This document shows positions 6,889 through 63,407 of a DNA stretch of 64,000 nucleotides, piece after piece; the stretch's first letter is position 1; every line of letters starts with the position of its first letter. The notes beneath the pieces were generated by a model, which was not told the DNA's origin, did not search any database, and saw only the letters and a program-made list of their open reading frames with translations. A program made the position numbers and the translations under genes. Origin of the DNA: Maribacter sp. Its GTDB lineage: Bacteria; Bacteroidota; Bacteroidia; Flavobacteriales; Flavobacteriaceae. The DNA lies in the NCBI RefSeq assembly GCF_039974175.1, contig NZ_JBDWJN010000012.1, forward strand, positions 60,724 through 124,723. The letters run 5' to 3'.

Positions 6889-6943
6889 AAAGGTTGGTTA
6901 GTATAGGGTGGTTATCCTAAAACAATTAGGACAAATATTCCTA

Positions 6944-44159: not shown

Positions 44160-44336
44160 ATCAGTTTATTGATAAGATTCGGATTTGCTTTAGGGGTTGC
44201 GTCTTTGTGTAAGAATCTTAATAGTTGCATGTTTATTAAAGCCTAATAAATTTAACCATTATACTTTAGCGCATCGATATAAGGCTATTCTGAGCGCTTT
44301 TGTTCGCCCGTTTTGTTTTCAAAAAAGCGCATTTCC

Positions 44337-44657: not shown

Positions 44658-44716
44658 AACCCGATTGATTGTTACTACGGTCTAGGCTTGTATATCAGTG
44701 CGTGCTGTGTTTTTAC

Positions 44717-45331
44717 TTATTTGAGTTCCAATGCATTTATCTGGGCCGCTACTTCTTCAACTTGGGTTCTATTACCATCGGTTTGAAATCTATTTCCAAA
44801 AACCATTTGATATGTTCTCCCAAGATACAACGAGAATGCATTGTAATCTAGCTCTCCTTCTTTATAAGCTTGGTATATTTTGCTAAAATGCTTTTTTCTT
44901 GCTGCTATAGAATTTGAATGATGAATAATGGCCCATGGAGCCATAAATGCTTTAGTTCCGTGTTTATTTTTACTTGGATAGCCGTGTTTCAGAAGATACC
45001 CGTCGATTTTGATGAAATTTAAGGAATCAAGTCTCACGAACTTCTTTGAAAACTCAATATCTTCCTTTGAATTCCGACCAAATTCAAGAACGATTTTTGA
45101 ACTTTGGTTTTGTCTCAATCTTTGATCTTCGTCTGCTAAAAATTCAAGATACTCCTTTTGTGATTGGAAGGTTGTTAATTTGTCAATGTTTGAGTTAATC
45201 CTTGCTAAATCAAATTCCGAATTTTGCCTACATCCAAGCAGAATGCATAGAAAGGCAATAACGATATTCAATTTTTTGATTTTAAGCCAAAGAAATACCC
45301 GCGCTTTTAAAGCGCTATTAAAAATATCCAT
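44717..45331 (-). CDS. Hypothetical lipoprotein
   Basis: LLGCRQN lipobox; start codon abuts a junction-motif copy. Confidence 0.55.
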   Translation of the reverse strand: MDIFNSALKARVFLWLKIKKLNIVIAFLCILLGCRQNSEFDLARINSNIDKLTTFQSQKEYLEFLADEDQRLRQNQSSKIVLEFGRNSKEDIEFSKKFVRLDSLNFIKIDGYLLKHGYPSKNKHGTKAFMAPWAIIHHSNSIAARKKHFSKIYQAYKEGELDYNAFSLYLGRTYQMVFGNRFQTDGNRTQVEEVAAQINALELK

Positions 45332-45343
45332 TATTTGAACTTC
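45330..45343 (-). repeat. Junction motif copy (plus strand aTTATTTGAACTTc; 12/14 to TTTATTTGAACTTT)
   Basis: Lies between the TPR gene stop (45351) and the next start (45331). Confidence 0.7.
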
Positions 45344-45350
45344 ACTATTC

Positions 45351-46472
45351 TTAATTGCAATGTTTTTCTATAAACTCATTCGCGTCAGAATCTCCCAACT
45401 GTATAGCTCTTTTGAAGTCGATACAAGCCTGTGAATTTTGTTTTAGTTCAATTCTTGATTTGCCCCGGTTGCGATATGAAAAGGCATAATTCGGATCGAG
45501 TTCAATTGCCTTATCAAAATCATCCATTGATTCCCTAAAATAACCTAGATTATACTTGGAAAGACCACGATTGTTATATGGTAATGCCATATTAGGAGCC
45601 ATTTGAATTGCTTTTGTAAAATCTTTTATAGAACCCTTATAATCTTTTCGATTACTTCTTACCCGGGCAACTCCTCTATTGATATAAGGTATGGGGTAAC
45701 TAGGATCGACTTTAATTGCTTTAGTGTGGTCCTTTATAGCACTTCTAAAATCATTTTGTTTACTCCTTAAGTTACCTCTATTGGTGTAAGAAATTGCATG
45801 CTTGGGGTCAATTTTAATTGCTCGATTATAATCCGATAGCGCACCGGAAGGATTTTTAAGACTTTCCTTCAGTAAACCTCTATTGCAATAAAAAGGCGCG
45901 TGATTAGGATTAATTGAAAGAGCCTGATTATAATCATCCATCGCACCCTCATAATCTCCTAAATGAAACTTAGACCTACCTCTACCACCGAAAACTAAAT
46001 CACTTCTCAAACCTAATTGAAAAGCCTTATTTAAATCATCCAATGCTTTTTCATAATTCTTCAAATCGTTTTTGGCCGTACCTCGACTAGAATATGCCTC
46101 ACTGTAATCTGACTTTAGGGTAATGGCCTCAGAAAAGTCTTCAATTGCATTTTCGAAGTTCTTAAGCCTTGCTTTGGCAAGACCTCTTTGGTAATATGCT
46201 TCGGGAAATTTGGGGCGAAGTTCCAATGCTGTGGTAAAATCCACAATTGCAGATTCATAGTTCTTGAGATGTAACTTACCTTGCCCAATGTTAAAATATG
46301 CTCCAGGGGAATCGCCTTCATTCTTAATGACCTTTTTAAAATTCCTTATAGATTGTTTGAACTTCCCCTTGGCAAGAAGGAATTGTGCGTTTTTATATAA
46401 TTTACTATCGGTTTGACCTTGTGAAGGAATACAGGCACATAAAAAACAAAGTGTTATAATAAATGGTTTCAT
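45351..46472 (-). CDS. Tetratricopeptide-repeat protein, exported
   Basis: About 9 consecutive 34-aa TPR units (A..Y..RG......Y..A..D...A....P). Confidence 0.85.
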   Translation of the reverse strand: MKPFIITLCFLCACIPSQGQTDSKLYKNAQFLLAKGKFKQSIRNFKKVIKNEGDSPGAYFNIGQGKLHLKNYESAIVDFTTALELRPKFPEAYYQRGLAKARLKNFENAIEDFSEAITLKSDYSEAYSSRGTAKNDLKNYEKALDDLNKAFQLGLRSDLVFGGRGRSKFHLGDYEGAMDDYNQALSINPNHAPFYCNRGLLKESLKNPSGALSDYNRAIKIDPKHAISYTNRGNLRSKQNDFRSAIKDHTKAIKVDPSYPIPYINRGVARVRSNRKDYKGSIKDFTKAIQMAPNMALPYNNRGLSKYNLGYFRESMDDFDKAIELDPNYAFSYRNRGKSRIELKQNSQACIDFKRAIQLGDSDANEFIEKHCN

Positions 46473-46550
46473 TGGTTGGGATTACTTATTAATATTAATT
46501 TAATTTTTGATGAGTAATTAGTATTATCTATAATTTAGAGCTATTCATCG

Positions 46551-46564
46551 TTTAACTGAACTTT
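46551..46564 (-). repeat. Degenerate junction motif copy (TTTAACTGAACTTT; 12/14)
   Basis: Overlaps the stop codon of 46563-47000, upstream of the TPR gene. Confidence 0.45.
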
Positions 46565-47000
46565 AAATGGAGGTGTCTCCAGTCTGAATCAATTTTTTGA
46601 ATTCATTTAATTTGGAATCGCTTGCTCCTATCCAGAACTTTAATTTTTCATCCATGGAGTTTTGATTGATAAATACCATCTGATGAAGATAAAACGGGAT
46701 GCCTAATAACCGTATTCTTGTAGATGTCGACTCGATTGACTTTATCTTCTGTATTTTAACTCTCCTGTTTTCATGTTTGCTTTTTAAATATAAAAAATCA
46801 GAGTCGTAAAAGAAGTTGAATGTAGTAGAATCAATTTTCTTAAGCCAGAAATATGATAGTCCACTTACGCTGACCAAAGCACAAAGTAACCAATAGTAGT
46901 CGTTTCTTAAAAAGACATAGGATAGGAGAAATCCAATTAATCCAAAAATTATTGGAGTAGACATCCGTATGTTTCGATTATTTGCTGAAAGTTCCTTCAC
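46563..47000 (-). CDS. Hypothetical membrane protein
   Basis: Two N-terminal TM segments; GTG at 47000 or ATG at 46964 as start. Confidence 0.5.
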   Translation of the reverse strand: MKELSANNRNIRMSTPIIFGLIGFLLSYVFLRNDYYWLLCALVSVSGLSYFWLKKIDSTTFNFFYDSDFLYLKSKHENRRVKIQKIKSIESTSTRIRLLGIPFYLHQMVFINQNSMDEKLKFWIGASDSKLNEFKKLIQTGDTSI

Positions 47001-47012
47001 AAATTGTTATCC

Positions 47013-47026
47013 TTTATTTGAACTTT
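47013..47026 (-). repeat. Junction motif copy (TTTATTTGAACTTT; 14/14)
   Basis: 13 nt upstream of the GTG at 47000. Confidence 0.8.
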
Positions 47027-47110
47027 GGTTATGCTTACTAAAATAGGCATATCAATTAATCTTTAAAGAACAGAACTATAGCTTTTCATATGAGGTTTTG
47101 TTAGCAACCG

Positions 47111-48037
47111 TTATTTTACCTTCAATAATCGTTGCCGAGCAATATTCCTAAATCCTGTCCAAGCATTTACTGAGTCAAATGGTAAATCCATTTCAATTTG
47201 GTTATCGGTGAACCTTGTTTTCCAATTTCCTCCTTTAGAAATTCCATTGTTAGAGGTCAGTTCAGAGACATTTCCGAGAATCCCATACAATCCATAAATG
47301 TTTGCTCCCAAAGCCATTGCTTCGCATGTTGCAATTCCACATCTACTTTTCTTAATTTTCGTTTTGGCTTTTGAATGGAATTCTGTTGTATTATATAAGT
47401 AATTGTACTTCTTTAATGTTTTTTTATTTTCTCTCCAATTAGAATCAATTCCATTAGGAAAATTTGAGCCCCGTCCGGCGATTAATTCCCATTCATTTTT
47501 GTTCGGTAAAATGTATTCAGGAACTAATATATTTTCTTTGGATATTATCCAGTCGTAATTACCGTTTATATATTTTTCTATTGTAAAATAATTGTCCTTT
47601 GTATAAGTGAATTCGGGTTTAATCAGACCCTTTCTAATTAGTAATATTTCAGCAACCCTATCCGTTCTCCATTTACTAAATAATTCTGCCTGTTTAAGAG
47701 AAATTCCAACAACAGGATACTCAGCAAAATGTGGTTGGGTAAAATACTGTTCATTTAATTTGCCAGAAAATTCGGTGTTATCCCAAATCGATTTATCCAA
47801 CTGTATTTGTTTAAATTCAATAGAGTTTTTTCCAAATATTTCTTCAGTCCAATCTATAAATTCTAGGTACATTACATTGGTGGTTTCTGTTTCGTCGGCA
47901 TAGAGATTTTCATTAATAAATATAAGCCCCGGTCCAGTAACAACTTCATATTGTTGATTGTCAATCATCAAATATTTGGTTGTATCACAGGATGATAAAA
48001 GGATAAAAAAAAGAATTAATGTAATTCTATAAATCAT
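47111..48037 (-). CDS. FGE-sulfatase (SUMF1/GldJ-like) domain lipoprotein
   Basis: LLSSCDTT lipobox; C-terminal NVSELT...KGGNW...AWTGFRNIA pattern of the formylglycine-generating-enzyme fold. Confidence 0.65.
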   Translation of the reverse strand: MIYRITLILFFILLSSCDTTKYLMIDNQQYEVVTGPGLIFINENLYADETETTNVMYLEFIDWTEEIFGKNSIEFKQIQLDKSIWDNTEFSGKLNEQYFTQPHFAEYPVVGISLKQAELFSKWRTDRVAEILLIRKGLIKPEFTYTKDNYFTIEKYINGNYDWIISKENILVPEYILPNKNEWELIAGRGSNFPNGIDSNWRENKKTLKKYNYLYNTTEFHSKAKTKIKKSRCGIATCEAMALGANIYGLYGILGNVSELTSNNGISKGGNWKTRFTDNQIEMDLPFDSVNAWTGFRNIARQRLLKVK

Positions 48038-48081
48038 TTATTAATGGTTGCTAACGGTTGGGCTCGCATGTTAAATTATCC

Positions 48082-48094
48082 TTTATTAAACTTT
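48082..48094 (-). repeat. Variant junction motif copy (TTTATTAAACTTT)
   Basis: Preceded by the same ATCC as the 47013 and 60171 copies; 45 nt upstream of the 48037 start. Confidence 0.5.
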
Positions 48095-48153
48095 AGAAAA
48101 CTTTTAAACGGCTTTGTAAAAGACACCTTAAAGCTTAAGCTTGCTTGCCAAAA

Positions 48154-49005
48154 CTACACATAAACATATAGCGGTGAAACTATTCGTTTTTCTCCATTCC
48201 TTTCGGTCATCGCTAGCTTAGCCGGGTCAGCATTAGGCAATACCACAGTCTTAGTTGTAGTAGCGATATCGGTATACGTTAATTGAAATTTAGGTTTGAT
48301 AATTCCTAAGGGTATTGCAAATTCGCTGGTCAGTTGCCATGCGTTCTGGCCATTTGCAAGGGTGGTTTCTACTGCTTTGCTAAAGGGTATGTCAGCAGCA
48401 CCGTCAATAGATCGAATATTCAATTGCGAAATACCATGGCCAAATATATGATATTGCCAAAGCGTGTGTCTAGTTTCGAAGCGAATTTCAAATTGACCAG
48501 GGCTATTGGTATCAAAAGATGCCTTCATGCTGGCACTAGCAATTTGTAATGTACCCAGCTTAAGTGCATCTGGCTGATCAACAAATCGAGGATGGAGCGT
48601 TACACTTTCATTGTTGCTTTGGTTGAGTTCATCTTCACTTGCATAAACCAAAAGCCCCTGAAAATCTGTGGGAAGCTTGGTATAATTGAAAAAATTGGGG
48701 TCGGTGCTTGCGATATTAAAATCAAGTGGCGCCCTCTCATCGAAATAGGCATCATAAGAAGCTTCGGTTTCGGCATAAAGTTGAACCCCGTTTTGCACCT
48801 GCCTCAGAATAAAAGCATGCCTGGCAAGCAATGCAATTGTAGCTTGGCTGGGGCTACATCGTAAAAAAGAATGCGGCTTATTTTCAAAATAGGCATGCCG
48901 TGCTTGCATTGAAAACAAGAGTTTGTAATTCGTTCTGTTCATTGTTTCGCTTGATTGATTTAGTGATAGTTCTTCATCGTTGAATTGGACTTTAATTCTA
49001 TTCAA
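48154..49005 (-). CDS. Hypothetical cytoplasmic protein (orphan)
   Basis: 283-aa ORF from TTG 49005; ATG at 48942 is an alternative start; no recognisable motif. Confidence 0.55.
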   Translation of the reverse strand: MNRIKVQFNDEELSLNQSSETMNRTNYKLLFSMQARHAYFENKPHSFLRCSPSQATIALLARHAFILRQVQNGVQLYAETEASYDAYFDERAPLDFNIASTDPNFFNYTKLPTDFQGLLVYASEDELNQSNNESVTLHPRFVDQPDALKLGTLQIASASMKASFDTNSPGQFEIRFETRHTLWQYHIFGHGISQLNIRSIDGAADIPFSKAVETTLANGQNAWQLTSEFAIPLGIIKPKFQLTYTDIATTTKTVVLPNADPAKLAMTERNGEKRIVSPLYVYV

Positions 49006-49111
49006 GAATTGAAACGGTAAGCTGGAGACACCACTTTAAAGCCATCCTCATAAGTTTCACCTCTTTCATTCAGACTTCAGGTTCGCACCCTTACCCTAAG
49101 TTGGTATACTT

Positions 49112-49531
49112 TTATTTTTGTTGGTTCAGGTTTTCATCGCTATCAAGTCTTTCATTAAAGGCATTATTTTGCTGAAGTATCTTTTTTTGTTGCATTCCTC
49201 TAATCAAAAAAGAAATTCCCGAAAATGTAATTATAGCACCGAATAATAGAGAAAGAAATAGCAGCACAAAAACTCCTGAGATCATTAAAAAGATACCGTA
49301 ATTAATGTTTTTCTTAGGATGCAGAGAACCCTTTTGAGATTGGGCATTTCCAGCGGCATCAAGTTTAAGATTTAACTTTCTATCAGCTTCTTTTTCATCT
49401 TTCAAGAATAGCTCACAGCTATCTTCAAAGTCAGGTTTTTCATTGGTTAAGGCACAAAGCAGCCCTTTTTCGAAATCAATCTTTCTATTTTGACAAATGG
49501 TACAAAATACGAGTCTTTCATTTAATGTCAT
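49112..49531 (-). CDS. Zinc-ribbon-like N-terminal domain plus two-TM membrane protein
   Basis: CTICQNRK...C...C cysteine pattern, then hydrophobic segments; start set to ATG 49531. Confidence 0.55.
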   Translation of the reverse strand: MTLNERLVFCTICQNRKIDFEKGLLCALTNEKPDFEDSCELFLKDEKEADRKLNLKLDAAGNAQSQKGSLHPKKNINYGIFLMISGVFVLLFLSLLFGAIITFSGISFLIRGMQQKKILQQNNAFNERLDSDENLNQQK

Positions 49532-49547
49532 TAGAATGTTTTTAGCG

Positions 49548-49561
49548 TTTCTTTGAACTTT
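49548..49561 (-). repeat. Junction motif copy (TTTCTTTGAACTTT; 13/14)
   Basis: Lies in the 34-nt gap between the beta-barrel gene stop (49566) and ATG 49531. Confidence 0.65.
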
Positions 49562-49565
49562 TGAG

Positions 49566-50132
49566 TTAGAATCGAAAACCAACCCCAATTTTTAGCAGGT
49601 TGATGTTGGTGTTGAATTTGAGGTCGGGAGCACCGTCAACTGGTGAAAGCTTGATAATATCATAGTGTAGGAGAGCGAAAAATCTGGAGCTGAAATTGAT
49701 CGATAATCCAGCGTTTGCATTAAATCCGCTTTGGTTCTGATTTAAATCGGCACTATCTAATAAAAATGAATTTGCCCTAAAATTCACAAAAGTATACCCT
49801 ATACCCAAGGAGGGTGTGATTTTTTGCAAACCAGGCAAGTGTAACGCTCCAAAAATACCTGGTTGAATAAATAAAGCCTTAACCGTACTTGATTGAGGAA
49901 CTAAATCATTGTCAAAAACCAGGTAACTCCCATTGGCTGATGCGCCTATTTTCACAATACCCGTATCAACAAAACGGTACTGTACCCCCATATCTGCAAC
50001 TCCCGTATAATTTTCACCTATAAAATTCTTATCAATAGGCAAGGGGTAGGATAGGGTTACACTAAATTTAGTGTCTTGCGCATAACTGACGGAAACAAAA
50101 AGAAAACAAACTATAGGTACTAGATATTTCAA
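49566..50132 (-). CDS. Small outer-membrane beta-barrel (porin-family) protein
   Basis: Signal peptide ending SYAQ, alternating beta pattern, C-terminal GVGFRF; TTG start. Confidence 0.65.
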   Translation of the reverse strand: MKYLVPIVCFLFVSVSYAQDTKFSVTLSYPLPIDKNFIGENYTGVADMGVQYRFVDTGIVKIGASANGSYLVFDNDLVPQSSTVKALFIQPGIFGALHLPGLQKITPSLGIGYTFVNFRANSFLLDSADLNQNQSGFNANAGLSINFSSRFFALLHYDIIKLSPVDGAPDLKFNTNINLLKIGVGFRF

Positions 50133-50747
50133 AGTTTAGAGCAAATTGGATTTGATAGCCAAAATTAGCGGTTTTCTAAACTTTTCAACCTAAATTTCGT
50201 CAAAACACATAGGATTGCCCCAATACGAATCTTGACGTCTTGGCAGTTTGGGTTCTCCGGAGGTAAGTAGAGCTTTCTAAATTTTACCTCGACCCTGGCA
50301 CTTTTATTTATTGTCATATGATCCGCGTTTTAAGCTCATGAGCACGCGCCAAAATCAAGCTGAGCCTTTGCTATTTTGTGCGTTTTATCGATAATCACGA
50401 ATTACTGTGGCTTTTTTTATTATTTTACTTACTCTAATACCAACCACTTCCCTATTTGCGGTGATATACCCAAAGTATCAACCCTTGTATAATATTAATT
50501 GTGGTTCGGTGTACCTAAAAACTGAAGATGCCTATTATTCGTTAGTATTTTGAGTTAAAAGATTTATAGAAGTCTTTAGGAATAAGGACAGAACTTAAAT
50601 TGGAAATGAAAAGGTCTGCTGATAATGTGTTTGCCGAAGATTTATTACTTAAAATAATATTTTTGTCAGTTCAAGAGCATATGACAGTAGGCATCAATCT
50701 TAATTTAACATTCTTGTTGAAGTAAATAATTGACTAAAACCTATTGA

Positions 50748-52400
50748 ATGTGGAAAACTAATCTCATTTGGGTTATTTTATATATTGCATTTGTACCACC
50801 AATATTTGGTCAAGACAGTTTTGAGGACAAAACACTGGAGGAAATTGACAAACTAACCCTTGCTGCTTGGCGAAATGGTGATATACAAAAGAGCCGGATT
50901 TATGCAGATTATCAAATAGAAAAAGCTAAAAAATTGAAAGATAGTTTAGCTATAGCGTTTGCCTTTTATACTTACATGTATTCCGAAAATTTTGAAGAAG
51001 CATTAAACTATTGCGATTCCACAATAATCTTTACAAAAAATTCAAAGAACAAATTTTACCCTACGTTAGGATACTTAGTAAAAGGCAAAATATATAAGCA
51101 GAAAAAAATGTTTAAGCTTGCTTTAGACAATTTACTTATTGCAGATAGTTTAGCAAAAGTAAAGCAAAATATCGCCCAACAGTCTTCAGTTAAGCAAGTT
51201 ATTGCCAATATTTATAGTCATTTAGGCAAATATGAGGAAGCCCTTGAAATGCATAAGAAATATTACTTGCAAAAGTCTGAATATGGTGGTGAAAATTGGG
51301 AAATAAGTCGGAACCATACTATAGCACTTTACAATCTATCTTTATCATACCTCAAGGTAAAGAAAAGAGACTCCGCCCGTCTTTTTTATCAGTATGCTGC
51401 AAACAAAGCAGAGCAAGCAAACTTCCATGATTTCTATACCAGCAAACTTGTTAGCATCCATGCTCAAATCGATTTTTACGACAAAAGATACGATAGTGCC
51501 CTAGATACTTTAAGGAAATATAGGTTTGATAATTCCGGCAACTGGTTGGCTAATAACTATTATTATTCAGGTAAAATCCACAGATTTAAAAATAACAATG
51601 ACAAGGCGATTGAGTTCTTTACCAAAATGGATTCAATGCTCACAGCTGATAAGGAGCCCTTTTTTCATGCAAAAGATGGTTTGGCTGAACTTTCAAACAT
51701 TTTTAAAGAACTAGGAGACTCCGAGAACCAGCTAAAATATATTAACAGATATCTATGGGTTGACAGTATTCTTATTGAGCAAAAAGAAACCATTGACCCA
51801 CTTATTGTTAACAAATATCAGAAGCCAATTATGCTTGAAGAAAAGCGGAAACTTCTTGACCAAGCTTCAAGGAAGCAAGTACTTTTAAATTACCTCTATG
51901 TTACCTTAGGTGCCTTTGTGAGTGTAGGGGTTTACTTTGGGATCAAATCACGAGAACATTCCAGAAGAATTCAGTACCTCATTGAAAACGGAATCCCAAC
52001 TTCAAGTGCGTCATCTATTAGAAACAAAACACCCAATTCAATCCCCGAAGAAGTTGCGGAACTTTTAACAAGAGGGCTTGACGAATTTGAAAACGCTAAA
52101 CTATTCTTGGACAAAGAACTTACCCTATCAAATTTGGCGAAACAATTTGATACCAATTCAACTTATTTATCAAAATACATTAATGAGAAAAAAGGGGAAA
52201 ATTTTCCTAGTTATATAAAAGGTTTAAGAATAAAATATGCCATAGAAGCACTTAAAGAAAATCCCGGCTTACTTAAATTCAATATTAAAGGTCTGGCCTC
52301 AGAATTTGGATTCCAAACACCTGATGCCTTCTCACGGGCATTTCAAAAAGAAACCAATGTGAAGCCGTCACAGTTTATTAAACAACTTCGAAAACTCTAA
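50748..52400 (+). CDS. TPR-containing, membrane-anchored AraC-type HTH regulator
   Basis: Signal/TM, TPR-like repeats, one TM near aa 390, C-terminal LASEFGFQTPDAFSRAFQKETNVKPSQF. Confidence 0.75.
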   Translation: MWKTNLIWVILYIAFVPPIFGQDSFEDKTLEEIDKLTLAAWRNGDIQKSRIYADYQIEKAKKLKDSLAIAFAFYTYMYSENFEEALNYCDSTIIFTKNSKNKFYPTLGYLVKGKIYKQKKMFKLALDNLLIADSLAKVKQNIAQQSSVKQVIANIYSHLGKYEEALEMHKKYYLQKSEYGGENWEISRNHTIALYNLSLSYLKVKKRDSARLFYQYAANKAEQANFHDFYTSKLVSIHAQIDFYDKRYDSALDTLRKYRFDNSGNWLANNYYYSGKIHRFKNNNDKAIEFFTKMDSMLTADKEPFFHAKDGLAELSNIFKELGDSENQLKYINRYLWVDSILIEQKETIDPLIVNKYQKPIMLEEKRKLLDQASRKQVLLNYLYVTLGAFVSVGVYFGIKSREHSRRIQYLIENGIPTSSASSIRNKTPNSIPEEVAELLTRGLDEFENAKLFLDKELTLSNLAKQFDTNSTYLSKYINEKKGENFPSYIKGLRIKYAIEALKENPGLLKFNIKGLASEFGFQTPDAFSRAFQKETNVKPSQFIKQLRKL

Positions 52401-52500
52401 TTAAGCGACGATTTGCAAATGAAAAGCAAGGAGAATTTTTTTTGGAATTTGCTGCTCAAAAAATAGTAGTGAGGCCGGTGCTCCGGATTAAAATTAATAG

Positions 52501-52528
52501 TTTAGTTGTCGTAACTAAATATTTAGTT
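52501..52528. promoter_or_regulatory. Candidate BlaI-type operator (TTTAGTT-N5-AACTAAA plus a third TTTAGTT half-site)
   Basis: 7-5-7 inverted repeat at 52501-52519 and a direct half-site at 52522-52528, 12 nt upstream of the GTG start. Confidence 0.4.
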
Positions 52529-52539
52529 ATATTTATATC

Positions 52540-52917
52540 GTGACGAACATTAAATTAACCAAGGCGGAAGAATCGGTTCTCAAAATTCTTTGGGAAAAAG
52601 AAAAAGCCTTTATCAAAGAAATCATAGCAGAAATACCGGGCAAAAAACCGGCATACTCTACCGTTTCTACCATTGTACGTATACTAGAACGCAAAGGCTA
52701 TGTCGCCTATGAAAGTTTTGGAAAAAGCCACCGGTATTACCCCTTGATACAACGCGAAGACTATACCAAGGGCGTACTTTCTCATATGATGAATACCTAT
52801 TTCGGGGGTGATTTTAAACAAATCGTAAGTTTTATGTCGAACTCCAACAACATTTCGATCGCAGAACTTGATGAAATTTTGTCTGAACTAAAAAAAGAAA
52901 AGCTAAATGGTACTTGA
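52540..52917 (+). CDS. BlaI/MecI/CopY-family transcriptional repressor
   Basis: Winged-helix pattern (LTKAEESVLKILW...STVSTIVRILERKGYV); GTG start. Confidence 0.85.
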   Translation: MTNIKLTKAEESVLKILWEKEKAFIKEIIAEIPGKKPAYSTVSTIVRILERKGYVAYESFGKSHRYYPLIQREDYTKGVLSHMMNTYFGGDFKQIVSFMSNSNNISIAELDEILSELKKEKLNGT

Positions 52918-54127
52918 TAGCAATGCCATTCTTATCACAGTGGGTATCACCGGCCTCGGGCTGCTGCTTTATGAGGTGTTGTTAAAATATGCTGTACCCA
53001 CAAAGGGTATTCGATTGTACTTCTATTTCCTTTTTGCGCTTCATATCGTGGCCTTTCTAGACCTTGATATCCTTAACGAATTACACTTTGCTGGCGGTTT
53101 GACCACTTTGCATTTAGAAACCTATATCAAGCCTATTGACCTTGATGCACCAATAGGAAATCGCTTAGAAAATACGGTGGTACTCCTTTATGTTTCGGGG
53201 GTAGCTTTCGGCTTGCTCAAAATGACGCTCGGCATTGTCAAGCTGATCAAGCTAATACGCATGTCCTCCGCCGGAAAACACAAATTTGAAAGATTGGTGC
53301 CGGTTTCCAATTTTCAACCTTGCACTTTTTTCAACTACATCTTAATGCCGACCGATCTTCCAAAAACCCTCTATGATACGGTATATCAACATGAACGTTA
53401 TCATGTGCGTCAGTTACATACGCTTGATATGGTGTTATGGCGTTTGTTAAGTGTGCTCTTTTGGTTTAATCCGTTCGTGCATATCATTCGATCAAGGCAG
53501 TCACAAAATTTAGAGTACGACACTGATGCCTATATCACCCAATCAATTCCGAAAGACTACTACTGTGCACAATTGTTGCGTTCGACCTTTAATTCGCGAA
53601 AAATTGATTTTTTCCCCATGTTTAACCGATCTAATGTTTATCGTAGAATTAAAAGGCTACAGCAGTATCGCGACCGAAAAAGACCTTGGTCTAACTTGAC
53701 TTTACTGCTTGCTGTCGTACTACTTTTTACAGGTACCATGATGTCAAAAGCCAGTTTGTTACCGCAGACGCGAACGGGTATGGCCAATACTATCTCAAAA
53801 CCTGAATTTCCACCTGAGGGCCTAGGGTATTATATAGACTCGGTCTTGCAAGCCCGTATCGGAGATACATTCGATGACATAAATACAAGTTATAGGTTGC
53901 AGCTCTTCTTAGACATCACTATTGATGAAAAAGGAAAGGTCATCAAGGTGCGTACTGATGATAGCCAATCTAAACAAGCAGGTGATACCAATACCAACTA
54001 CGTTATAAGCAAGCTGTTACTAGAAACTATAGCAAATATGCCCCCTTGGATACCCGCTAAACAAAACAACAGGGCGGTTAGATCAACCATACATGAAGAA
54101 TTTCTTTTTACAGGTGAAAGCGAATAA
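52907..54127 (+). CDS. M56-family (BlaR1-like) membrane metallopeptidase/sensor
   Basis: HExxH (YQHERYHVRQLH) after TM segments; overlaps the blaI-like gene by 11 nt. Confidence 0.8.
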   Translation: MVLDSNAILITVGITGLGLLLYEVLLKYAVPTKGIRLYFYFLFALHIVAFLDLDILNELHFAGGLTTLHLETYIKPIDLDAPIGNRLENTVVLLYVSGVAFGLLKMTLGIVKLIKLIRMSSAGKHKFERLVPVSNFQPCTFFNYILMPTDLPKTLYDTVYQHERYHVRQLHTLDMVLWRLLSVLFWFNPFVHIIRSRQSQNLEYDTDAYITQSIPKDYYCAQLLRSTFNSRKIDFFPMFNRSNVYRRIKRLQQYRDRKRPWSNLTLLLAVVLLFTGTMMSKASLLPQTRTGMANTISKPEFPPEGLGYYIDSVLQARIGDTFDDINTSYRLQLFLDITIDEKGKVIKVRTDDSQSKQAGDTNTNYVISKLLLETIANMPPWIPAKQNNRAVRSTIHEEFLFTGESE

Positions 54128-54267
54128 CAAAGAGGCCTCGAGACTCTGAACCATATAGAAAGAACCCGCCGTTTTTAGTTGCCTTTCGGTTATGACATAT
54201 TCAATGTGCACTATTTCAATGACCATAGCAGCCTTAAAACGCGCATCACTAATTTAAAAATGATACG

Positions 54268-54831
54268 ATGAACACGCTAAAGAAAACAACTGCTTTATTA
54301 ATGGTATGCTGCTCACTTTCATTGGCGCATGCCCAATACGAAATCAAACCCTCAGCAGACTACACGCCCCATATTGGTGTATTGGTGAGTATGCTTGAAG
54401 ATTTAAAAGGTAGAATAACCGAACAGGTAAAAGATTTAGACCAATCACAAACCGACTTTTTATATGACGAAGACGCCAACAGCATTGGGTCGTTGGTGAT
54501 GCATTTGGTGTCGACAGAAGCCTATTACCAAATAGAAACCTTGGAGGGAAGGCCATGGACTGATGCCGAGCAAAAGCGATTGGGTGTGGCTGGCGGACTT
54601 AATGATGAAACAAAAAAATTACTTCGAGGAAAACCGATACAGCACTATTTGGATTTGTGGGATGAGGTACGCCAAAAAACCCTTGCCGGATTGAAAACCA
54701 AAGACGATGCATGGTTCGCATCGAATATCGAAGAGGGTATTAACTACCACTGGGTTTGGTTTCATGTTATGGAGCATTCGGCCAATCATATGGGCCAAAT
54801 AGGCACCATCAAGAACCGATTGCCAAAGTAA
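54268..54831 (+). CDS. DinB-family protein with signal peptide
   Basis: HLVSTE ... VMEHSANHMGQ His pattern. Confidence 0.75.
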   Translation: MNTLKKTTALLMVCCSLSLAHAQYEIKPSADYTPHIGVLVSMLEDLKGRITEQVKDLDQSQTDFLYDEDANSIGSLVMHLVSTEAYYQIETLEGRPWTDAEQKRLGVAGGLNDETKKLLRGKPIQHYLDLWDEVRQKTLAGLKTKDDAWFASNIEEGINYHWVWFHVMEHSANHMGQIGTIKNRLPK

Positions 54832-55150
54832 GCTGGTAAAACTCAACTATAGGAACGATCTGAAATCATTACCCTTGATAAGCGATTCGTAATGATGTGA
54901 GGTCAATGCCCCCTCCTTTCTTTTGATAGCACTTTTGTTCTTGGCTATGCTATCGTTTTCGTTTTGGTAATGCAAGGAGCATTTCGGATACTGAAATTGA
55001 GTAATTAAGAGGAACGCACTTACCTAGTCGCTCAGTGTACAAATCACCCACTTTTCCAATTACTTACTAAATTGTAGAATAAATAAAATATTTCTTTATA
55101 TATTTGTTCTACATTCTAGGAGTATATAAGCACCTTATCCCGTATTCAAA

Positions 55151-55489
55151 ATGAAAGAAGCACGTTTAGGAGAGTTTGAAGAGATCATATTATTATTGGT
55201 GGGCATTCTTGAAGAGCAGGCCTACGCCTTTAAAATTGCCGAAGAATTTGAAGCTCAAACCGGAAAATCTGTTTCTATTGGAGCCACCCACTCCACCCTA
55301 GACCGATTGTGCAAAAAAGGATTCTTAAGCTCTGAATTAAGCAGGCCGACTGCCGTACGAGGAGGTCGTAGAAAACGCATATACACCATCTCGGCCAGCG
55401 GTCAACGGGCACTTACAGCATCGAAAGAGCTGCGAATGTCTTTATGGAACCAATACCCGGCATTTACAAAATTTACCTTTCAAGCATAA
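55151..55489 (+). CDS. PadR-family transcriptional regulator
   Basis: 112-aa winged helix (GATHSTLDRLCKKGFL). Confidence 0.85.
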   Translation: MKEARLGEFEEIILLLVGILEEQAYAFKIAEEFEAQTGKSVSIGATHSTLDRLCKKGFLSSELSRPTAVRGGRRKRIYTISASGQRALTASKELRMSLWNQYPAFTKFTFQA

Positions 55490-55491
55490 AA

Positions 55492-58119
55492 ATGGCAGAG
55501 CGAAAACACATACCCCCAAAAATGGCCAAGCGCCTGCTAAAATGGTTTGTCAAAGAAGCCTTGGCCGAAGAAGTGCTGGGTGATTTAGAGGAGAAGTTTT
55601 ATGCAGATGCAGAGAAAAAAACCACGCTGTCTATAAAGCTCAACTACTGGTACCAGGTTCTTAACTATTTGCGCCCTTTTGCGCTACGAAAATCACTAGC
55701 AATCACATCAATCAACTACGGCATGTATAAAAATCATTTTAAAATCGGGTATCGCAATCTGCTTTCTGACAAGTGGCATTCATTTTTTAATATTATCGGT
55801 CTTGCCATGGGAATGGCCGCAACCCTACTCATGGGTATTTGGGTTTTCGATGAGCTTTCCTATAATAAAGGCTTTGAAAATTATGATGCCATCGCACAGG
55901 CAATGCAGACCCAAACCTTTAACGGAGAAGTACAAACAGCTGTTAATCAACCCATGCAGTTGGCGCCAGAACTCCGGGCGCTTTACAAAGATCATTTTAA
56001 GCATGTGGTGACCAGTTCGTTTATAGACAATGAGCTCTTAACCGTAGGAGACACCAAAGTATCTCGCCCGGGTAACTTTATGGAACCCGGCATTGCCCAT
56101 ATGTTGTCACTTCAGATGATAAGCGGAAGCCGAGATGCCCTGCAAGACCCTACATCTATGCTACTATCTGAATCGACAGCAAATGCCCTCTTCGGCAATG
56201 CAGACCCCATGGGTCAAAACGTGGAAATTGGCAGCGGTATGAAAGCTCAAGTAGCTGGGGTATACCAAGATCTTCCCAAAAATTCAGACTTTGCCAACCT
56301 CAGCTTTATCGCACCTTGGCAGTTGCTGAATACCACCGCAAATTTTGAAGCACGGGTAGGCTGGGGCAACAATTGGTTTCAAACCTTCGTGCAATTAGCA
56401 GACGGTGCTGATCTTACCGAGGTATCTTCCTTAATAGCCGATGTAAAATACGATAACATAAAAAATGAGGGTAATCCTCGCGGGGTAAAAACCAAACCGG
56501 TCATTCATTTGCACCCCATGAAAAAGTGGCATTTGTATTCGCGTTTTGAAAATGGAATCAGTACCGGTGGGGCCATAGAACGTGTCTGGCTGTTTGGTAC
56601 CATCGGCATTTTTATACTGCTTTTGGCCTGTATCAATTTTATGAACCTTTCTACCGCGAAATCGGTAAAAAGGGCAAAAGAAGTGGGTATTCGCAAGACT
56701 ATTGGTTCGGTCAAAAATCAATTGATCTTCCAATTTTTGAACGAATCTTTTTTGGTAGTAGCGCTGGCCTTCGTGATTTCACTTTTCTTAGTTTTATTGG
56801 CACTACCATTTTTCAACGGCCTTACAGATAAAACCATGACAATTCCTTATGCCAAGCCTGTATTTTGGTTAAGTTGCCTGTTGTTCATCTTATGCACCGG
56901 CATAGTGGCTGGAAGTTACCCCGCTTTTTACCTTTCATCTTTCAATCCTGTTAAAGTATTAAAAGGCACTTTCAACAGCGGACAGGGCGCATCTAATTTA
57001 CGTAGGGCGCTTGTGGTGTTCCAGTTTACGATCTCTGTAGTGCTCATTATTGGTACCATTACCATTTACAGGCAGATACAATACGTAAAGGATAGACCGC
57101 TAGGTTACGACAAAGAGCAGATGCTCTATGTTCCCATAAATGGCCCAGCAGTGCGCCATAGTTTTGAAACCATACGAAACGAACTTTTACTTTCCAATGC
57201 TATCAAAGACGTAGCAGCCTCAGATGTTCTCGTAACGGGTACCTTCGTTACCAATAGTGGTTTTGACTGGAAAGGCAAGGACCCCGAGATGAGTGAAGAA
57301 TTCAATACGCTGCGGGCTACCCATGGCTTTGGAGCAATGATTGATTGGGAAATTAAGGAGGGTCGCGACTTTTTACGTGACTTTAGAAGTGATTCCTTAG
57401 CCTTGATCATCAACGAAACAGCAGCGCGCTATATGGGACTTGAAAAGCCCGTAGGAGAATCAGTAAAATGGGGAGACATGGGGCCATTCAAAATAATTGG
57501 TGTCGCCAAAGATATGGTGACGCGTTCGCCCTACGATCAAGTGCGACCTACAATTTTTAGCTTGCACAATGGTAATTTTCTAAATTTTGTGAACATAAAA
57601 ATTGGTCAAGAGGCACCTATGGGCGAGGCATTGACCCATATCGAAAAAGTGTTTCACAAACACGACCCCAAAAGCCTGTTCACCTATAATTTTTTAGATG
57701 ATGATTACGCACGTAATTTCATTGATGAAGAACGCACGGGTAAATTGGCAAGCTTTTTTGCGTTTTTGGCTATCTGCATCAGTTGCTTGGGCATCTTCGG
57801 GCTTTCGGCCTTTGTGGCAGAACAACGCACCAAGGAAATAGGCGTACGCAAAGTACTTGGCGCCTCGGTCATGAGCCTATGGAAATTACTCTCCAAAGAT
57901 TTTGTATTCATGGTCATCTTATCTTGCTTTATCGCTATACCCATCGGCCATTATTATATGAACCTATGGATTCAAGACTATAGCTATCGCACCGAACTGA
58001 ACTGGTGGATTTTTGCCATCGCCACCTTAGGTGCTTTGGCCATCACGCTGTTGACCGTAAGTTTCCAAGCGATCAAAGCAGCGGTGCATAACCCCGTTAA
58101 AAGTTTAAGAGCAGAATAA
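55492..58119 (+). CDS. FtsX/MacB-like ABC transporter permease (duplicated FtsX domains)
   Basis: Two FtsX-like 4-TM modules with large periplasmic domains; start set to ATG 55492, 2 nt after the PadR stop. Confidence 0.85.
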   Translation: MAERKHIPPKMAKRLLKWFVKEALAEEVLGDLEEKFYADAEKKTTLSIKLNYWYQVLNYLRPFALRKSLAITSINYGMYKNHFKIGYRNLLSDKWHSFFNIIGLAMGMAATLLMGIWVFDELSYNKGFENYDAIAQAMQTQTFNGEVQTAVNQPMQLAPELRALYKDHFKHVVTSSFIDNELLTVGDTKVSRPGNFMEPGIAHMLSLQMISGSRDALQDPTSMLLSESTANALFGNADPMGQNVEIGSGMKAQVAGVYQDLPKNSDFANLSFIAPWQLLNTTANFEARVGWGNNWFQTFVQLADGADLTEVSSLIADVKYDNIKNEGNPRGVKTKPVIHLHPMKKWHLYSRFENGISTGGAIERVWLFGTIGIFILLLACINFMNLSTAKSVKRAKEVGIRKTIGSVKNQLIFQFLNESFLVVALAFVISLFLVLLALPFFNGLTDKTMTIPYAKPVFWLSCLLFILCTGIVAGSYPAFYLSSFNPVKVLKGTFNSGQGASNLRRALVVFQFTISVVLIIGTITIYRQIQYVKDRPLGYDKEQMLYVPINGPAVRHSFETIRNELLLSNAIKDVAASDVLVTGTFVTNSGFDWKGKDPEMSEEFNTLRATHGFGAMIDWEIKEGRDFLRDFRSDSLALIINETAARYMGLEKPVGESVKWGDMGPFKIIGVAKDMVTRSPYDQVRPTIFSLHNGNFLNFVNIKIGQEAPMGEALTHIEKVFHKHDPKSLFTYNFLDDDYARNFIDEERTGKLASFFAFLAICISCLGIFGLSAFVAEQRTKEIGVRKVLGASVMSLWKLLSKDFVFMVILSCFIAIPIGHYYMNLWIQDYSYRTELNWWIFAIATLGALAITLLTVSFQAIKAAVHNPVKSLRAE

Positions 58120-58150
58120 CCTCTTGATGCACCCTTAGGTCGATGTAGCA

Positions 58151-58178
58151 AACAAAAAACCCTTCAATTTCTTGAAGG
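58151..58178 (-). terminator. Hairpin plus T-run (minus-strand orientation), possible terminator of the 58.5-64 kb operon
   Basis: CCTTCAA (58161-58167) / TTGAAGG (58172-58178), 4-nt loop; minus strand continues GTTTTTTGTTT; about 325 nt past the PhyH stop. Confidence 0.45.
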
Positions 58179-58254
58179 ATTAATCATTACTATTGTGGAC
58201 CCCCTAATTATAAGTCAGAAAATAATTGTTTTCAATACTCCTATTCTTTACTAT

Positions 58255-58272
58255 TCCTTCCAATTGGAAGGA
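58255..58272. repeat. Perfect 18-bp palindrome TCCTTCCAATTGGAAGGA
   Basis: Read directly; lies in the 384-bp convergent intergenic region. Confidence 0.85.
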
Positions 58273-58503
58273 TAGAGAGGAGAAAAGATATATATGTTTT
58301 TAGGTATTTACTATTCACTCGTAACTAGACTTATTAAAATACTCTTGTTTTATGCAACTCTTAACACTACACCTTTCGAACATGGCTTCAGGAGTGTAAT
58401 TGTCGCCCATAAAAAATACCACAAAGAAGTATATCTCTTTGCAAAATTCGCTTTATGTAAAGAGTTTAAAGTCATCCTTCATTTGAATGTTAAGTAAATT
58501 GAG

Positions 58504-59226
58504 TTAAACTATTTCTAGTCTTTCCTTCCAATCTAATTCTTCAGGTAATGGTTTATCACAAAACTCAAGATGAATTACCCTTCTGTTGCTATGACCCGAC
58601 GCTTTACTTGATGCATGAAAGGTAAGTGGCCTCATTAACATTATACCGCCTGATTTCACTTCACAGGTAAACTCTTTGCTATTTTGCGAGCGTTCTTCCG
58701 TCCTAACTACTCCGTTTAAATGTGATTCTGGGACAACCCTTAATGCTCCATTAGTTTCATCAGTATCATCTAGATGAATTCGTATTGTAATTGTTCTATC
58801 TAAATACTCTGTTGGAGGTTGAACTCCAATTTGGCCTCTCTTATTAGTCCAATTTTTGAACCCTTCTATTTGCTTTTGTTCAATTACATTGATTGTTAAG
58901 TCTTGATGATATGCTACGAACCAATTTGAACCTTCGAGCTTGTCAAAATAGATGGCTTTGCTTAAGAACAATTTACCTTCCTGATGAAGTTTAACTAATA
59001 GTCTTCTTAGATTTTTATTAAATAATACTCTTGCCAGTTCTGGAATCTCATTTACTAATTCCCTAATCGCAAAAAGGTCTTTCGACTTTGAAATCGAATT
59101 GCTATCCAATTCTTTTTCAGCTATCACTTTAGTTATTTCGAATATCTCAGACTCAGAATAGACATTAGGAATAATTGAGTAACCCTTATTATTCAGTTGT
59201 GATATATGTTCATTCACTTTCATCAT
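58504..59226 (-). CDS. Phytanoyl-CoA dioxygenase (PhyH) family Fe(II)/2-oxoglutarate dioxygenase
   Basis: HxD (AYHQDL) and distal His (LTFHAS) in a 240-aa PhyH-like layout. Confidence 0.72.
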   Translation of the reverse strand: MMKVNEHISQLNNKGYSIIPNVYSESEIFEITKVIAEKELDSNSISKSKDLFAIRELVNEIPELARVLFNKNLRRLLVKLHQEGKLFLSKAIYFDKLEGSNWFVAYHQDLTINVIEQKQIEGFKNWTNKRGQIGVQPPTEYLDRTITIRIHLDDTDETNGALRVVPESHLNGVVRTEERSQNSKEFTCEVKSGGIMLMRPLTFHASSKASGHSNRRVIHLEFCDKPLPEELDWKERLEIV

Positions 59227-59239
59227 TTATTTGAACTCT
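59226..59239 (-). repeat. Junction motif copy (TTTATTTGAACTCT; 13/14)
   Basis: Abuts the ATG at 59226, in the 27-nt gap after the stop at 59254. Confidence 0.75.
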
Positions 59240-59253
59240 AGTTTAGCATTCAA

Positions 59254-59715
59254 TTAATTATCCGTTTGCTGGAGCTGCCATTTTATCTCTTTATCATTTA
59301 GGTTTGGATATCTATCACTTACTTGAAAATCAACAGAGTCAAACATAAAATTGGCAATGTCGAAAATATGCTTGTCATTTGAATTTAATACAAATTTCAG
59401 CATCTCAGAAACCGACGCCGCGGCATTAAGTGCCAAAAATCCAATCAATTCGCCATAATCTTCGGTATCTGGAGTAACAGATTTTATCTTCAGAATTAAA
59501 TCGTTGATTTCTTTTTCTGAGAATTTGGACTTCTCATATTTTCGACAAACATCGATACCCTTTTCAAGTAATTCAGGGTTTCCAAAGTCATTTAGTTCGT
59601 AAAACTTTAAGTATTCGGGATAAATCCGTTCACAAATTTGAATGGCAAAATTCAGCTTCCTTTTGAAGGAAATCTTTTGGAGGTTATTTCGTAACTGAAT
59701 ATGATATTTAATCAA
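59254..59715 (-). CDS. YjaG/DUF416-like protein
   Basis: FAIQICERIYPEYLKFYELNDFG resembles my recollection of the E. coli YjaG N-terminal block (CERMYPNY...GFG); TTG start. Confidence 0.55.
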   Translation of the reverse strand: MIKYHIQLRNNLQKISFKRKLNFAIQICERIYPEYLKFYELNDFGNPELLEKGIDVCRKYEKSKFSEKEINDLILKIKSVTPDTEDYGELIGFLALNAAASVSEMLKFVLNSNDKHIFDIANFMFDSVDFQVSDRYPNLNDKEIKWQLQQTDN

Positions 59716-59726
59716 ATTTTCTATGA

Positions 59727-59740
59727 TTTATTTGAACTTT
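59727..59740 (-). repeat. Junction motif copy (TTTATTTGAACTTT; 14/14)
   Basis: Lies in the 32-nt gap between stop 59748 and TTG 59715. Confidence 0.8.
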
Positions 59741-59747
59741 GATTTCA

Positions 59748-60158
59748 TCATATCGGCTTAAAATGAACTTCGACATTTGGTATTCCAGGAGGGTCATTTT
59801 CACCAGATACAAGAATCAATATTAATTTGCTTTCATCAATTGATTTAATCCTAGATGTAATCTTATCTTTTATTGAAAGTTCGACATACTTATTTTCAGG
59901 AAAATATTTCCAAATTCCACTCTCATTATTGCCATCTTTTCGAATCAAGTCATATTTACCATCTGAAATAAATTTGAAATCAAAGTCGGCTGCTCCTGGC
60001 ATCTGTTTGATTTTCATTCCACCCATTAAGGCATATTCAATTTGCCACTGCTTACATAAAACTGTTTCTAACTGTGTTTTACTTAAACCAATATCTTGGG
60101 CGGATAGGCCATTACTCAGTCCCACTAAAAACCCAAAAATTAAGAGTATTCCTTTCAT
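59748..60158 (-). CDS. Lipocalin-like small exported protein
   Basis: Signal peptide MKGILLIFGFLVGLSNGLSAQ; start set to ATG 60158. Confidence 0.5.
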   Translation of the reverse strand: MKGILLIFGFLVGLSNGLSAQDIGLSKTQLETVLCKQWQIEYALMGGMKIKQMPGAADFDFKFISDGKYDLIRKDGNNESGIWKYFPENKYVELSIKDKITSRIKSIDESKLILILVSGENDPPGIPNVEVHFKPI

Positions 60159-60170
60159 ATATTTTAATCC

Positions 60171-60184
60171 TTTATTTGAACTTT
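60171..60184 (-). repeat. Junction motif copy (TTTATTTGAACTTT; 14/14)
   Basis: Lies in the 28-nt gap between stop 60187 and ATG 60158. Confidence 0.8.
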
Positions 60185-60186
60185 TA

Positions 60187-63404: not shown

Positions 63405-63407
63405 AGA

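Follow-up and report, generated by a model that had tools for sequence, protein, structure and literature searches.

An 18-bp intergenic motif as a probable cassette junction in low-GC gene arrays of marine Flavobacteriaceae

Two gene arrays share an intergenic motif

We analyzed a 64-kb stretch of DNA from Maribacter sp. (assembly GCF_039974175.1, contig NZ_JBDWJN010000012.1, positions 60,724 to 124,723; the whole stretch is hereafter called the window), which contains two low-GC arrays of accessory genes whose junctions carry copies of a short conserved motif. The two stretches have 32%–37% GC (32%–39% across the arrays) compared with 40%–44% in the remainder of the window, all of their open reading frames (ORFs) are on the minus strand, and the motif copies lie in the gaps between one stop codon and the next start. 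Array 1 (43788..50132, minus strand) holds nine co-oriented short accessory ORFs, namely those for an outer membrane protein (OMP) beta-barrel, a DUF308-like protein, a 283-aa unknown protein, an FGE-sulfatase-like protein, a 145-aa membrane protein, a TPR protein, a lipoprotein, and two small proteins. Array 2 (58350..63800, minus strand), the 5' end of which may lie beyond the window, consists of a three-gene unit and then three single-gene cassettes, each with a motif after it. The three-gene unit (60187–63800) encodes a 130-aa ORF, an 832-aa DUF4132/DUF7737 protein, and a 240-aa SUKH/SMI1 protein; it is tightly packed, with stops and starts that abut or overlap and no internal motif, and behaves as a single multi-gene cassette. 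Both this unit (63800–60187) and the OMP gene (50132–49566) have a motif after them and none clearly before. No recombinase was found in the 64-kb window, and look-ups of two window proteins, intended to carry the sequence past the window end in search of an integrase, gave no record.

An earlier note on this DNA, made from the letters alone, had described the motif as a 14-mer, on the plus strand TTTATTTGAACTTT, and its coordinates all proved correct: exact copies at 47013, 59727, and 60171, copies with one mismatch at 49548 and 59226, copies with two mismatches at 45330 and 46551, and one indel variant. The true repeat unit is longer, an 18-mer that reads AAAGTTCAAATAAAGGAT on the minus strand, with the gene-strand consensus AAAGTTCAAATAAA[G/C]GAT. 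Counting the 14-mer alone with up to two mismatches gives a weak statistic (nine matches in the window versus 3.4 expected), one of which, with a single mismatch at 42061, lies within an ORF outside the arrays and is probably due to chance. With the 18-mer and up to three mismatches, the window holds eight copies versus 0.25 expected, a number reached in none of 100 shuffles, so the non-random recurrence claimed earlier holds through the longer unit. All eight are on the minus strand and, like the indel variant found beyond them, fall within the two arrays; the motif was not found at non-array genes of the window. The single orientation, the association with junctions of minus-strand genes, and the confinement to two AT-rich stretches, all described before, were thus borne out.

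Along array 2, read on the minus strand, an exact 18-mer (60167..60184) separates the SUKH/SMI1 gene (60187–60909) from a secreted-protein ORF of 137–152 aa. A copy with two mismatches (AAAGTTCAAATAAATCAT, 59723..59740) lies upstream of the DUF416 ORF at 59254–59715, and another (AGAGTTCAAATAAATGAT, 59222..59239) has its end overlapped by the ATG of the PhyH-family ORF at 58504–59226. The last gene of the array is followed by a terminal copy with three mismatches (AACATTCAAATGAAGGAT, 58474..58491), 3' of which there are only a 41-codon ORF and a terminator-like hairpin (~58150–58180). In array 1, also on the minus strand throughout, a copy with three mismatches (AAAGTTCAAAGAAACGCT, 49544..49561) lies between the OMP beta-barrel ORF (49566–50132) and the DUF308-like membrane ORF (49112–49588), and a probable degenerate copy matching at 14 of 18 positions (AAAGTCCAATTCAACGAT, 48976..48993) lies ahead of what is probably the true start codon (ATG) of the 283-aa ORF (48154–49005). 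Then come the indel variant (TAAAGTTTAATAAAGGAT, 48078..48095) upstream of the FGE-sulfatase-like ORF (47111–48037), an exact 18-mer (47009..47026) upstream of the 145-aa membrane ORF (46563–47000), a copy with three mismatches (AAAGTTCAGTTAAACGAT, 46547..46564) that overlaps the stop codon of that ORF and precedes the TPR ORF (45351–46472) by ~75 nt, and a copy with two mismatches (GAAGTTCAAATAATGGAT, 45326..45343) that contains the ATG of the 204-aa lipoprotein ORF (44717–45331). Placement in stop-to-start gaps of co-oriented ORFs therefore stands as first described, except that the start is farther off at 46551 (~75 nt) and at 48082 (~40 nt); likewise, the copies listed in the earlier note are real, while the terminal copy at 58474–58491 and the probable degenerate copy at 48976–48993 had been overlooked.

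Distribution and anatomy of the motif

The exact 18-mer was scanned in one genome per species, and the loci fetched on this basis (designated by L numbers) amount to 872 kb. It was found in at least 117 stretches, nearly all from marine Flavobacteriaceae. Among the matches listed are the genera Maribacter, Flagellimonas/Allomuricauda, Arenibacter, Pricia, Eudoraea, Kriegella, Croceitalea, Ulvibacterium, Psychroserpens, Leeuwenhoekiella, and others, as well as two contigs labeled Saprospiraceae that also carry arrays and nine lone hits in unrelated phyla, which look like chance matches. Exact copies number 176 in the fetched loci, and a further 98, 94, and 69 copies have one, two, and three mismatches, respectively. 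Two or more copies occur in 79 fetched loci, of which only three have copies on both strands, and the densest array has 14 same-strand copies per 8 kb. Such a scan of related genomes had been proposed earlier, and among the matches listed it revealed family-wide, one-stranded arrays. In the complete genome of Maribacter sp. IgM3_T14_3 (CP187138), arrays occupy four or more places, some of them longer than 24 kb; the complete genome of Allomuricauda sp. R78024 (CP138995) carries arrays as well. Viral contigs yielded only 13 single matches, which is the chance level. Rfam gave no match at the motif (window positions 43–64 kb, E up to 1), and at the gathering score its only hits in five loci were group II introns. 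Searching full texts for the motif sequence brought up nothing but unrelated primer matches, and limited literature searches found no report of a cassette boundary of this type.

All 18 positions are conserved with abrupt edges, beyond which the flanks have background composition; the least constrained positions are 7, 11, and 15. The 18-mer has neither dyad symmetry nor a hairpin, and an identity as a repetitive extragenic palindrome or miniature inverted-repeat transposable element was rejected, as the motif is not palindromic, 76 of the 79 multi-copy loci are one-stranded, and the window copies are confined to arrays. At ORF–ORF junctions inside arrays, taken with no mismatch threshold, at least 11 of the 18 positions match in 76/93 cases and at least 16 in 52/93. 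Upstream ORFs read into the TAA of the motif in only ~11% of cases, so we regard the motif as non-coding. The upstream stop codon lies a median of 22 nt from the motif and overlaps its first A's in 34/225 cases, and the next ATG likewise lies at a median of 22 nt (interquartile range, 2.5–74 nt), being formed by the final AT of the motif plus a G in 46/309 copies. For 98 of the 309, no ATG-initiated ORF of 60 aa or more lies within 150 nt. At many junctions there is hardly any sequence beyond the motif itself, and k-mer enrichment near the motif detected no second conserved element except a rare GTTAGGACAC mini-cassette. A 45-nt mini-cassette without an ORF, made of the motif plus GAGTTAGGACACCATGTCGTAATTCGT, recurs in several genomes (L024:5096–5158; L056:1299–1361; L058, oriented, 5913–5975; L083:2187–2249); its 27-nt spacer contains a 7-bp imperfect inverted repeat (TTAGGAC...GTCGTAA).

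The cassette ORFs inside arrays, with a median length of 140 aa, are predominantly co-oriented (233 versus 33 opposite); one genuine gene in reverse orientation (DUF2807, 80 bits) is flanked by co-oriented motifs. They are highly diverse: the biggest blastp cluster comprises 14 of 767 ORFs, and 141 cassette ORFs match 93 Pfam families while most ORFs match none. The commonest cargo family is the ParD antitoxin (nine ORFs), alongside beta-lactamase, thioesterase, glyoxalase, NUDIX, DinB, and thioredoxin folds. Cargo such as toxin-antitoxin, glyoxalase, NUDIX, and DinB genes is of the kind reported for chromosomal integrons.

Cassette exchange and inheritance of the motif

Comparison of loci showed the arrays to be modular, with breakpoints at the motif. 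In an all-versus-all blastn of the oriented loci, which gave 146 alignments between different loci, alignment starts cluster at the motif start (87/273 within −6 to +5) and alignment ends cluster at the motif end (96/282 at +12 to +23). Past these limits, sequence continues on both sides but homology stops. Two locus pairs show the same precisely. Between L052 and L058 the flanks are 97% identical; they meet at a single motif in L052 and are parted in L058 by an extra 5.4 kb with six motif copies. The difference between L084 and L010 is one 364-nt cassette. In both comparisons, the overlap of the two alignments is exactly the motif. The earlier note had suggested comparing strains for the presence or absence of motif-bounded genes; between these pairs of loci, the insertions and deletions (indels) are cut exactly at the motif.

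Contigs from related samples point to recent reshuffling. The public runs X27–X30 contain about one-third of the words of the Maribacter array L037, and their contigs match single L037 cassettes at 97%–99% identity with different neighbors, the matches stopping at motif copies (e.g., L037 5881–7336 and 7318–7571). At one well-supported junction, L037 2164/7689, 17 ambiguous letters fit both sides and are the motif. Most other apparent joints in these runs had only ~21 nt on one side and were discounted as plain motif matches. Assembly chimeras are unlikely to account for the exchanges because an 18-nt repeat fits inside the 31-letter words of the Logan assemblies (and, we assume, inside the k-mers of the other assemblies), and complete genomes show the same arrays. 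Run X2 is from the same strain as the window, at low coverage, and RNA-seq runs under the species label of the window organism yielded no reads from that organism.

To assign the motif to one of its two neighbors, we compared motif variants in homologous cassette pairs whose outer flank is non-homologous. Variant positions are shared at 32/125 for the 3' motif versus 6/121 for the 5' motif (Fisher p = 5.6e-6), and identical non-consensus motifs were found in 7/56 pairs at the 3' side and 0/49 at the 5' side. Variants are thus linked to the upstream gene, and the unit is therefore an ORF plus its downstream motif, just as an integron cassette is an ORF plus attC. The window agrees with this unit, in that array 2 ends in a motif with no real gene after it and in that the three-gene unit and the OMP gene, as noted above, have a motif behind them but none clearly in front.

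Relationship to integrons and other recombinase-associated arrays

Among systems of bacterial gene capture, integrons are the textbook case, defined by the structured attC site. The arrays described here share with integrons the co-orientation of short, mostly promoterless, and very diverse ORFs; a site that lies 3' of the ORF and is inherited with it; gain, loss, and reordering of cassettes at that site; and a tolerance of reversed cassettes. They differ in that the motif has 18 nt whereas attC sites have 57–141 nt, and in that it lacks the R''/R' or L''/L' inverted repeats and the foldable hairpin of attC sites, on whose folded bottom strand IntI catalyzes recombination, being conserved across genera in sequence and not in structure. 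Integron arrays are headed by a divergent intI gene with an attI site and a Pc promoter, and most motif arrays, including both in the window, have no integrase nearby.

Nonetheless, some motif arrays join directly onto attI/attC-type arrays that have a divergent tyrosine recombinase at their head. At the edges of arrays, two recombinases (L068:4586–5656 and L036:1329–2453) are XerC/D-IntI-like, scoring 202–227 bits on NF040815 and ~200 bits on TIGR02249 (integron integrase), the cut-off of which (265) is not reached. They match TIGR02249 in two stretches, skipping its middle region, which we take to hold the IntI-specific domain. This IntI-like family (355 aa) shows 64%–76% identity to the query across Flavobacteriaceae genera, and one member is deposited as "Integron integrase". 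The gene is divergent from a short-ORF array in Maribacter LLG6340-A2, two Winogradskyella strains, Pseudozobellia, Allomuricauda, and Arenibacter. Loci with this recombinase and an array are L118:1–11068; L120, L121, L122, L123, L124; and L068:2799–5656. The two Winogradskyella strains have a common housekeeping flank and common sequence up to ...TATACGAGTTG, after which they diverge completely, and judging from the sequences this point would behave like an attI site; the attI-like junction of IntI-like-headed arrays reads ...TATACGT/GTTRRRY. In Maribacter LLG6340-A2, the array carries ~210-nt repeats that are conserved in sequence and attC-like, with R''/R' boxes, the R'' box complementing the start of its own cassette (GCCTAAC/GTTAGGC, ATACAAC/GTTGTAT). 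Arrays headed by the IntI-like gene thus resemble a chromosomal integron whose attC-like sites are unusually long.

The same ~210-nt attC-like element occurs, co-oriented, within the motif arrays of ten loci, and in L068 a single array runs from the IntI-like gene through attC-type cassettes to the motif. Moreover, the motif directly follows an attC-like R' box (...CCGTT plus 0–4 nt) in 14/418 copies versus 0.36% of control positions. By contrast, arrays directly beside an IntI-like gene use the ~210-nt repeats without the 18-mer.

Group II introns (Rfam RF00029, RF01999) were located at L078:~845–2735, with a reverse transcriptase/maturase ORF at L078:1377–2630, and at L051:233–308. An attC-like repeat is split by the L078 intron, whose end lies ~12–15 nt upstream of a motif copy; the same arrangement of intron end, attC end, and motif is seen at L010:92. 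This placement recalls the class C-attC introns of integrons. Integrases of the IntDOT/NBU type (Phage_int_SAM_5 plus Phage_integrase) were observed at the 3' ends of arrays (L013:7366–7923; L069, oriented, 4928–5389; L012:4634–5866; L022, oriented, 6334–7330). They abut the last motif in L013, where the stop codon is 3 nt from it, and in L069, although only sporadically, and integrative elements may attach at the motif or at the end of the array.

A second point of comparison is rAID-1 (recombinase-associated acquired interbacterial defense) of Bacteroidales, in which a XerD-family recombinase gene precedes short, co-oriented, low-GC genes whose conserved repetitive intergenic motifs have been called "reminiscent of integrons"; rAID-1 is defined by its 5' co-directional recombinase gene, and close homologs have been reported only in Bacteroidales (Ross et al., bioRxiv 10.1101/471110; PMC12247911). 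The arrays here come from the same phylum and likewise combine at least two co-directional short genes (~100–300 codons) of low GC (32%–39% in the window arrays, where rAID-1 has at most 41%), a conserved repetitive intergenic motif, SUKH-type genes, and an association with a XerD-family tyrosine recombinase. However, no XerD-like recombinase in the 5' co-directional position was seen in the window, in censuses of ORFs upstream of arrays, or at the IntI-like loci, where the recombinase gene is divergent from the array instead. The cargo also appears to differ, with general accessory genes here versus mainly immunity genes in rAID-1: the window has one SUKH gene, and the 141 cassette ORFs with Pfam matches are broad accessory cargo with the ParD antitoxin the most frequent. 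The rAID-1 motif is published only as a figure logo. The system described here therefore works like integrons and rAID-1 yet fails a defining feature of each, having no attC structure and no 5' co-directional recombinase.

Interpretation and alternative explanations

We consider it probable that the motif is the 18-bp junction site of a gene-cassette system present in many marine Flavobacteriaceae, and that it represents a recombination junction of an attC-less class. A cassette would consist of one ORF, sometimes two or three, plus one copy of the site at its 3' end; the cassettes would stack head to tail in co-oriented low-GC arrays, of which the two AT-rich stretches of the window would be examples. 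Recombination breaking at the site would insert, delete, and reorder cassettes, leaving the same cassette with different neighbors across genomes, and the site is inherited with the upstream gene, like the attC of integrons. The modularity, the breakpoints at the motif, the linkage to the upstream gene, and the continuity of some arrays with those headed by a XerC/D-IntI-like recombinase are shown directly; the variant linkage would place the crossover at or close to the 3' edge of the motif. We infer that the exchange is catalyzed by a site-specific recombinase acting in trans, which might be the IntI-like integrase or another recombinase, and recognition by such an enzyme may be reflected in the invariance of the site across genera. 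The earlier note had raised a cassette boundary as one of several roles, likening it to integron attC sites and to immunity-gene arrays of Bacteroidales, and this role gains support from the limits of homology blocks and the indels at the motif, the one-stranded arrays, and the continuity with integron-like arrays.

Several points weigh against this explanation. The absence of dyad symmetry or a hairpin is unusual for core sites of tyrosine or serine recombinases. Nevertheless, the sfx sites of the shufflon of plasmid R64, on which Rci acts, are asymmetric, sharply bounded tyrosine-recombinase repeats of ~19 bp, and hence a tyrosine-recombinase site need not be palindromic, although these sites are inverted repeats that drive inversions in the 3' end of one gene and are not direct repeats between independent cassettes. 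As to the enzyme, the ORF censuses on both sides of arrays show no dominant recombinase family (Phage_integrase accounts for 4 of 114 upstream ORFs), and six arrays adjoining an IntI-like gene lack the 18-mer in their first 3–10 kb; because of these six, coupling between the IntI-like gene and the motif is not strict, and we rejected the IntI-like recombinase as a dedicated partner of the motif. The homologous pairs behind the variant linkage are not phylogenetically independent, and the test of array ends gives only a weak trend, though in the same direction (the first motif is preceded by a co-oriented ORF in 11/26 arrays, and the last is followed by one in 8/33). Neither excised circles nor recombination in an experiment have been observed. 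Enzyme-free deletion between 18-bp direct repeats is also possible and could explain the cassette losses; it does not easily explain insertions, reordering, the presence of the same 18-mer on hundreds of unrelated genes, or its invariance across genera.

An unlikely but more substantial alternative than those that follow is that the 18-mer serves as a leader for translation initiation or re-initiation of promoterless ORFs in a polycistronic array, with exchange a by-product at conserved microhomology. The motif lies on the sense strand upstream of ORFs; its final AT plus a G forms the next ATG in the 46 copies mentioned above, and upstream stops often overlap its first A's, which makes for a minimal stop-14 nt-start arrangement. 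It is also A-rich and contains AAAGGA, which would presumably pair with the UCCUUU at the 3' end of Bacteroidota 16S rRNA. As Bacteroidota make little use of Shine-Dalgarno pairing, a signal of this sort might be required. However, copies overlapped by an ATG leave no room for pairing of the Shine-Dalgarno type. The distance to the start varies from −2 to more than 100 nt, 98 of the 309 surveyed copies have no ORF nearby, some copies precede a reversed gene, a 27-nt spacer, or nothing at all, and non-array genes of the window go without the motif. With variants inherited alongside the upstream and not the downstream gene, the initiation role proposed in the earlier note is weakened, and selection on expression alone does not account for one 18-mer on hundreds of unrelated genes. 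That very linkage to the upstream gene, together with strict strand specificity, would suit an RNA-level 3' element of that gene, such as an element that governs processing or stability, or one bound by a protein or small RNA that cuts or regulates the polycistronic transcript of the array, and 18 near-invariant, sharp-edged positions would suit pairing with a conserved trans-acting RNA; sediment metatranscriptome contigs lie on cassette ORFs, one of them across a motif junction, which is weak evidence for such a role. We nevertheless rate an RNA element as improbable, given that Rfam has no match and the flanks show no conserved structure, that position 15 alternates between G and C, a transversion that wobble pairing would not accommodate, and that breakpoints and indels exactly at the motif would be left unexplained.

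The suggestion that the copies are antisense promoters, with the plus-strand TTTATTTG as a Bacteroidota −7 box, fares worst and is very improbable. Although TTTATTTG fits five of the six specified positions of TAnnTTTG, the A at box position 2 is missing in the consensus motif, there is no conservation at the expected −33 TTTG position, and 18 uniformly conserved, sharply bounded positions exceed an eight-position box and are unlike a promoter; cassette modularity and the linkage to the upstream gene would also go unexplained. The gene strand of the motif contains no TAnnTTTG.

Beyond the cassette-junction reading itself, we tentatively entertain a broader and less secure proposal, that marine Flavobacteriaceae hold a second, attC-independent class of mobile cassettes, built on an asymmetric 18-bp site and a recombinase in trans (a XerC/D-like "integron" integrase or another). 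According to the IntegronFinder 2.0 report, its previous survey had found only In0 elements (integrase without detectable attC) in Bacteroidetes, and a single complete integron, from Salinibacter, was gained in the new one (PMC9024848). If the proposal is true, an attC-independent class would explain why Bacteroidota integrases are scored as In0 and would reveal a large cassette pool that crosses genera; the arrays described here may be what integrase-only calls missed. The data do show that, in a major marine family, large arrays of swappable cassettes delimited by a simple 18-bp site occupy several loci per genome. Should the site be a true recombination substrate, it would extend the concept of a cassette platform past attC, provide a sequence tag for mining the accessory genes of abundant marine heterotrophs, and offer a tractable relative of the rAID-1 of gut Bacteroidales, which could clarify how genes are acquired.

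Other features of the arrays and neighboring genes

Sequences reminiscent of attC ends were also found in array 1 (minus strand). Using an nhmmer model of the 3' end built from the L118 repeats (Flavobacteriaceae attC-like), the best match in the window was a weak one (E = 0.043), an attC 3'-end-like remnant (AGCCCAACCGTTAGCAACC..., 48036..48064) between the motif indel variant and the ATG that follows. A possible second remnant (GCACGCACTGATATACAAGCCTAGACCGTAGTAAC, 44668..44700), after the ORF at 44717–45331, was recognized in a by-eye comparison with CCGCACTACGCTTAGCCTAGACCGTTGTAT of L118 and is below the statistical threshold. In the 5' leader region of array 1 (50290–50340, minus strand), a hairpin-like sequence, GCGCGTGCTCATGAGCTTAAAACGCGGATCATATGACAATAAATAAAAG, resembles the "hairpin + CATAT..GAC/CGTT" that precedes the motif in L002, L007, L005, L041, and L046.

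Insertion sequence (IS) elements are present in two arrays of Maribacter IgM3, namely L037+L005 (1.248–1.264 Mb) and L051+L078+L081 (1.928–1.952 Mb). The types observed are IS110-family DEDD, IS1182-like DDE, and IS481-like rve transposases, and a TIR/SEFIR-domain gene was seen as well.

The two arrays of the window are separated by a block of higher GC on the plus strand (50748–58119), with genes for a TPR/AraC-family regulator, a BlaI-like repressor and BlaR1/M56 sensor, a DinB/MST-family protein, a PadR regulator, and a MacB/FtsX-type permease. Just outside array 1 (39413–41747, minus strand), a 502-aa protein with a DNA/RNA non-specific endonuclease domain is encoded beside a DUF4440/SnoaL-like protein, and the two could be a toxin/immunity-type pair.

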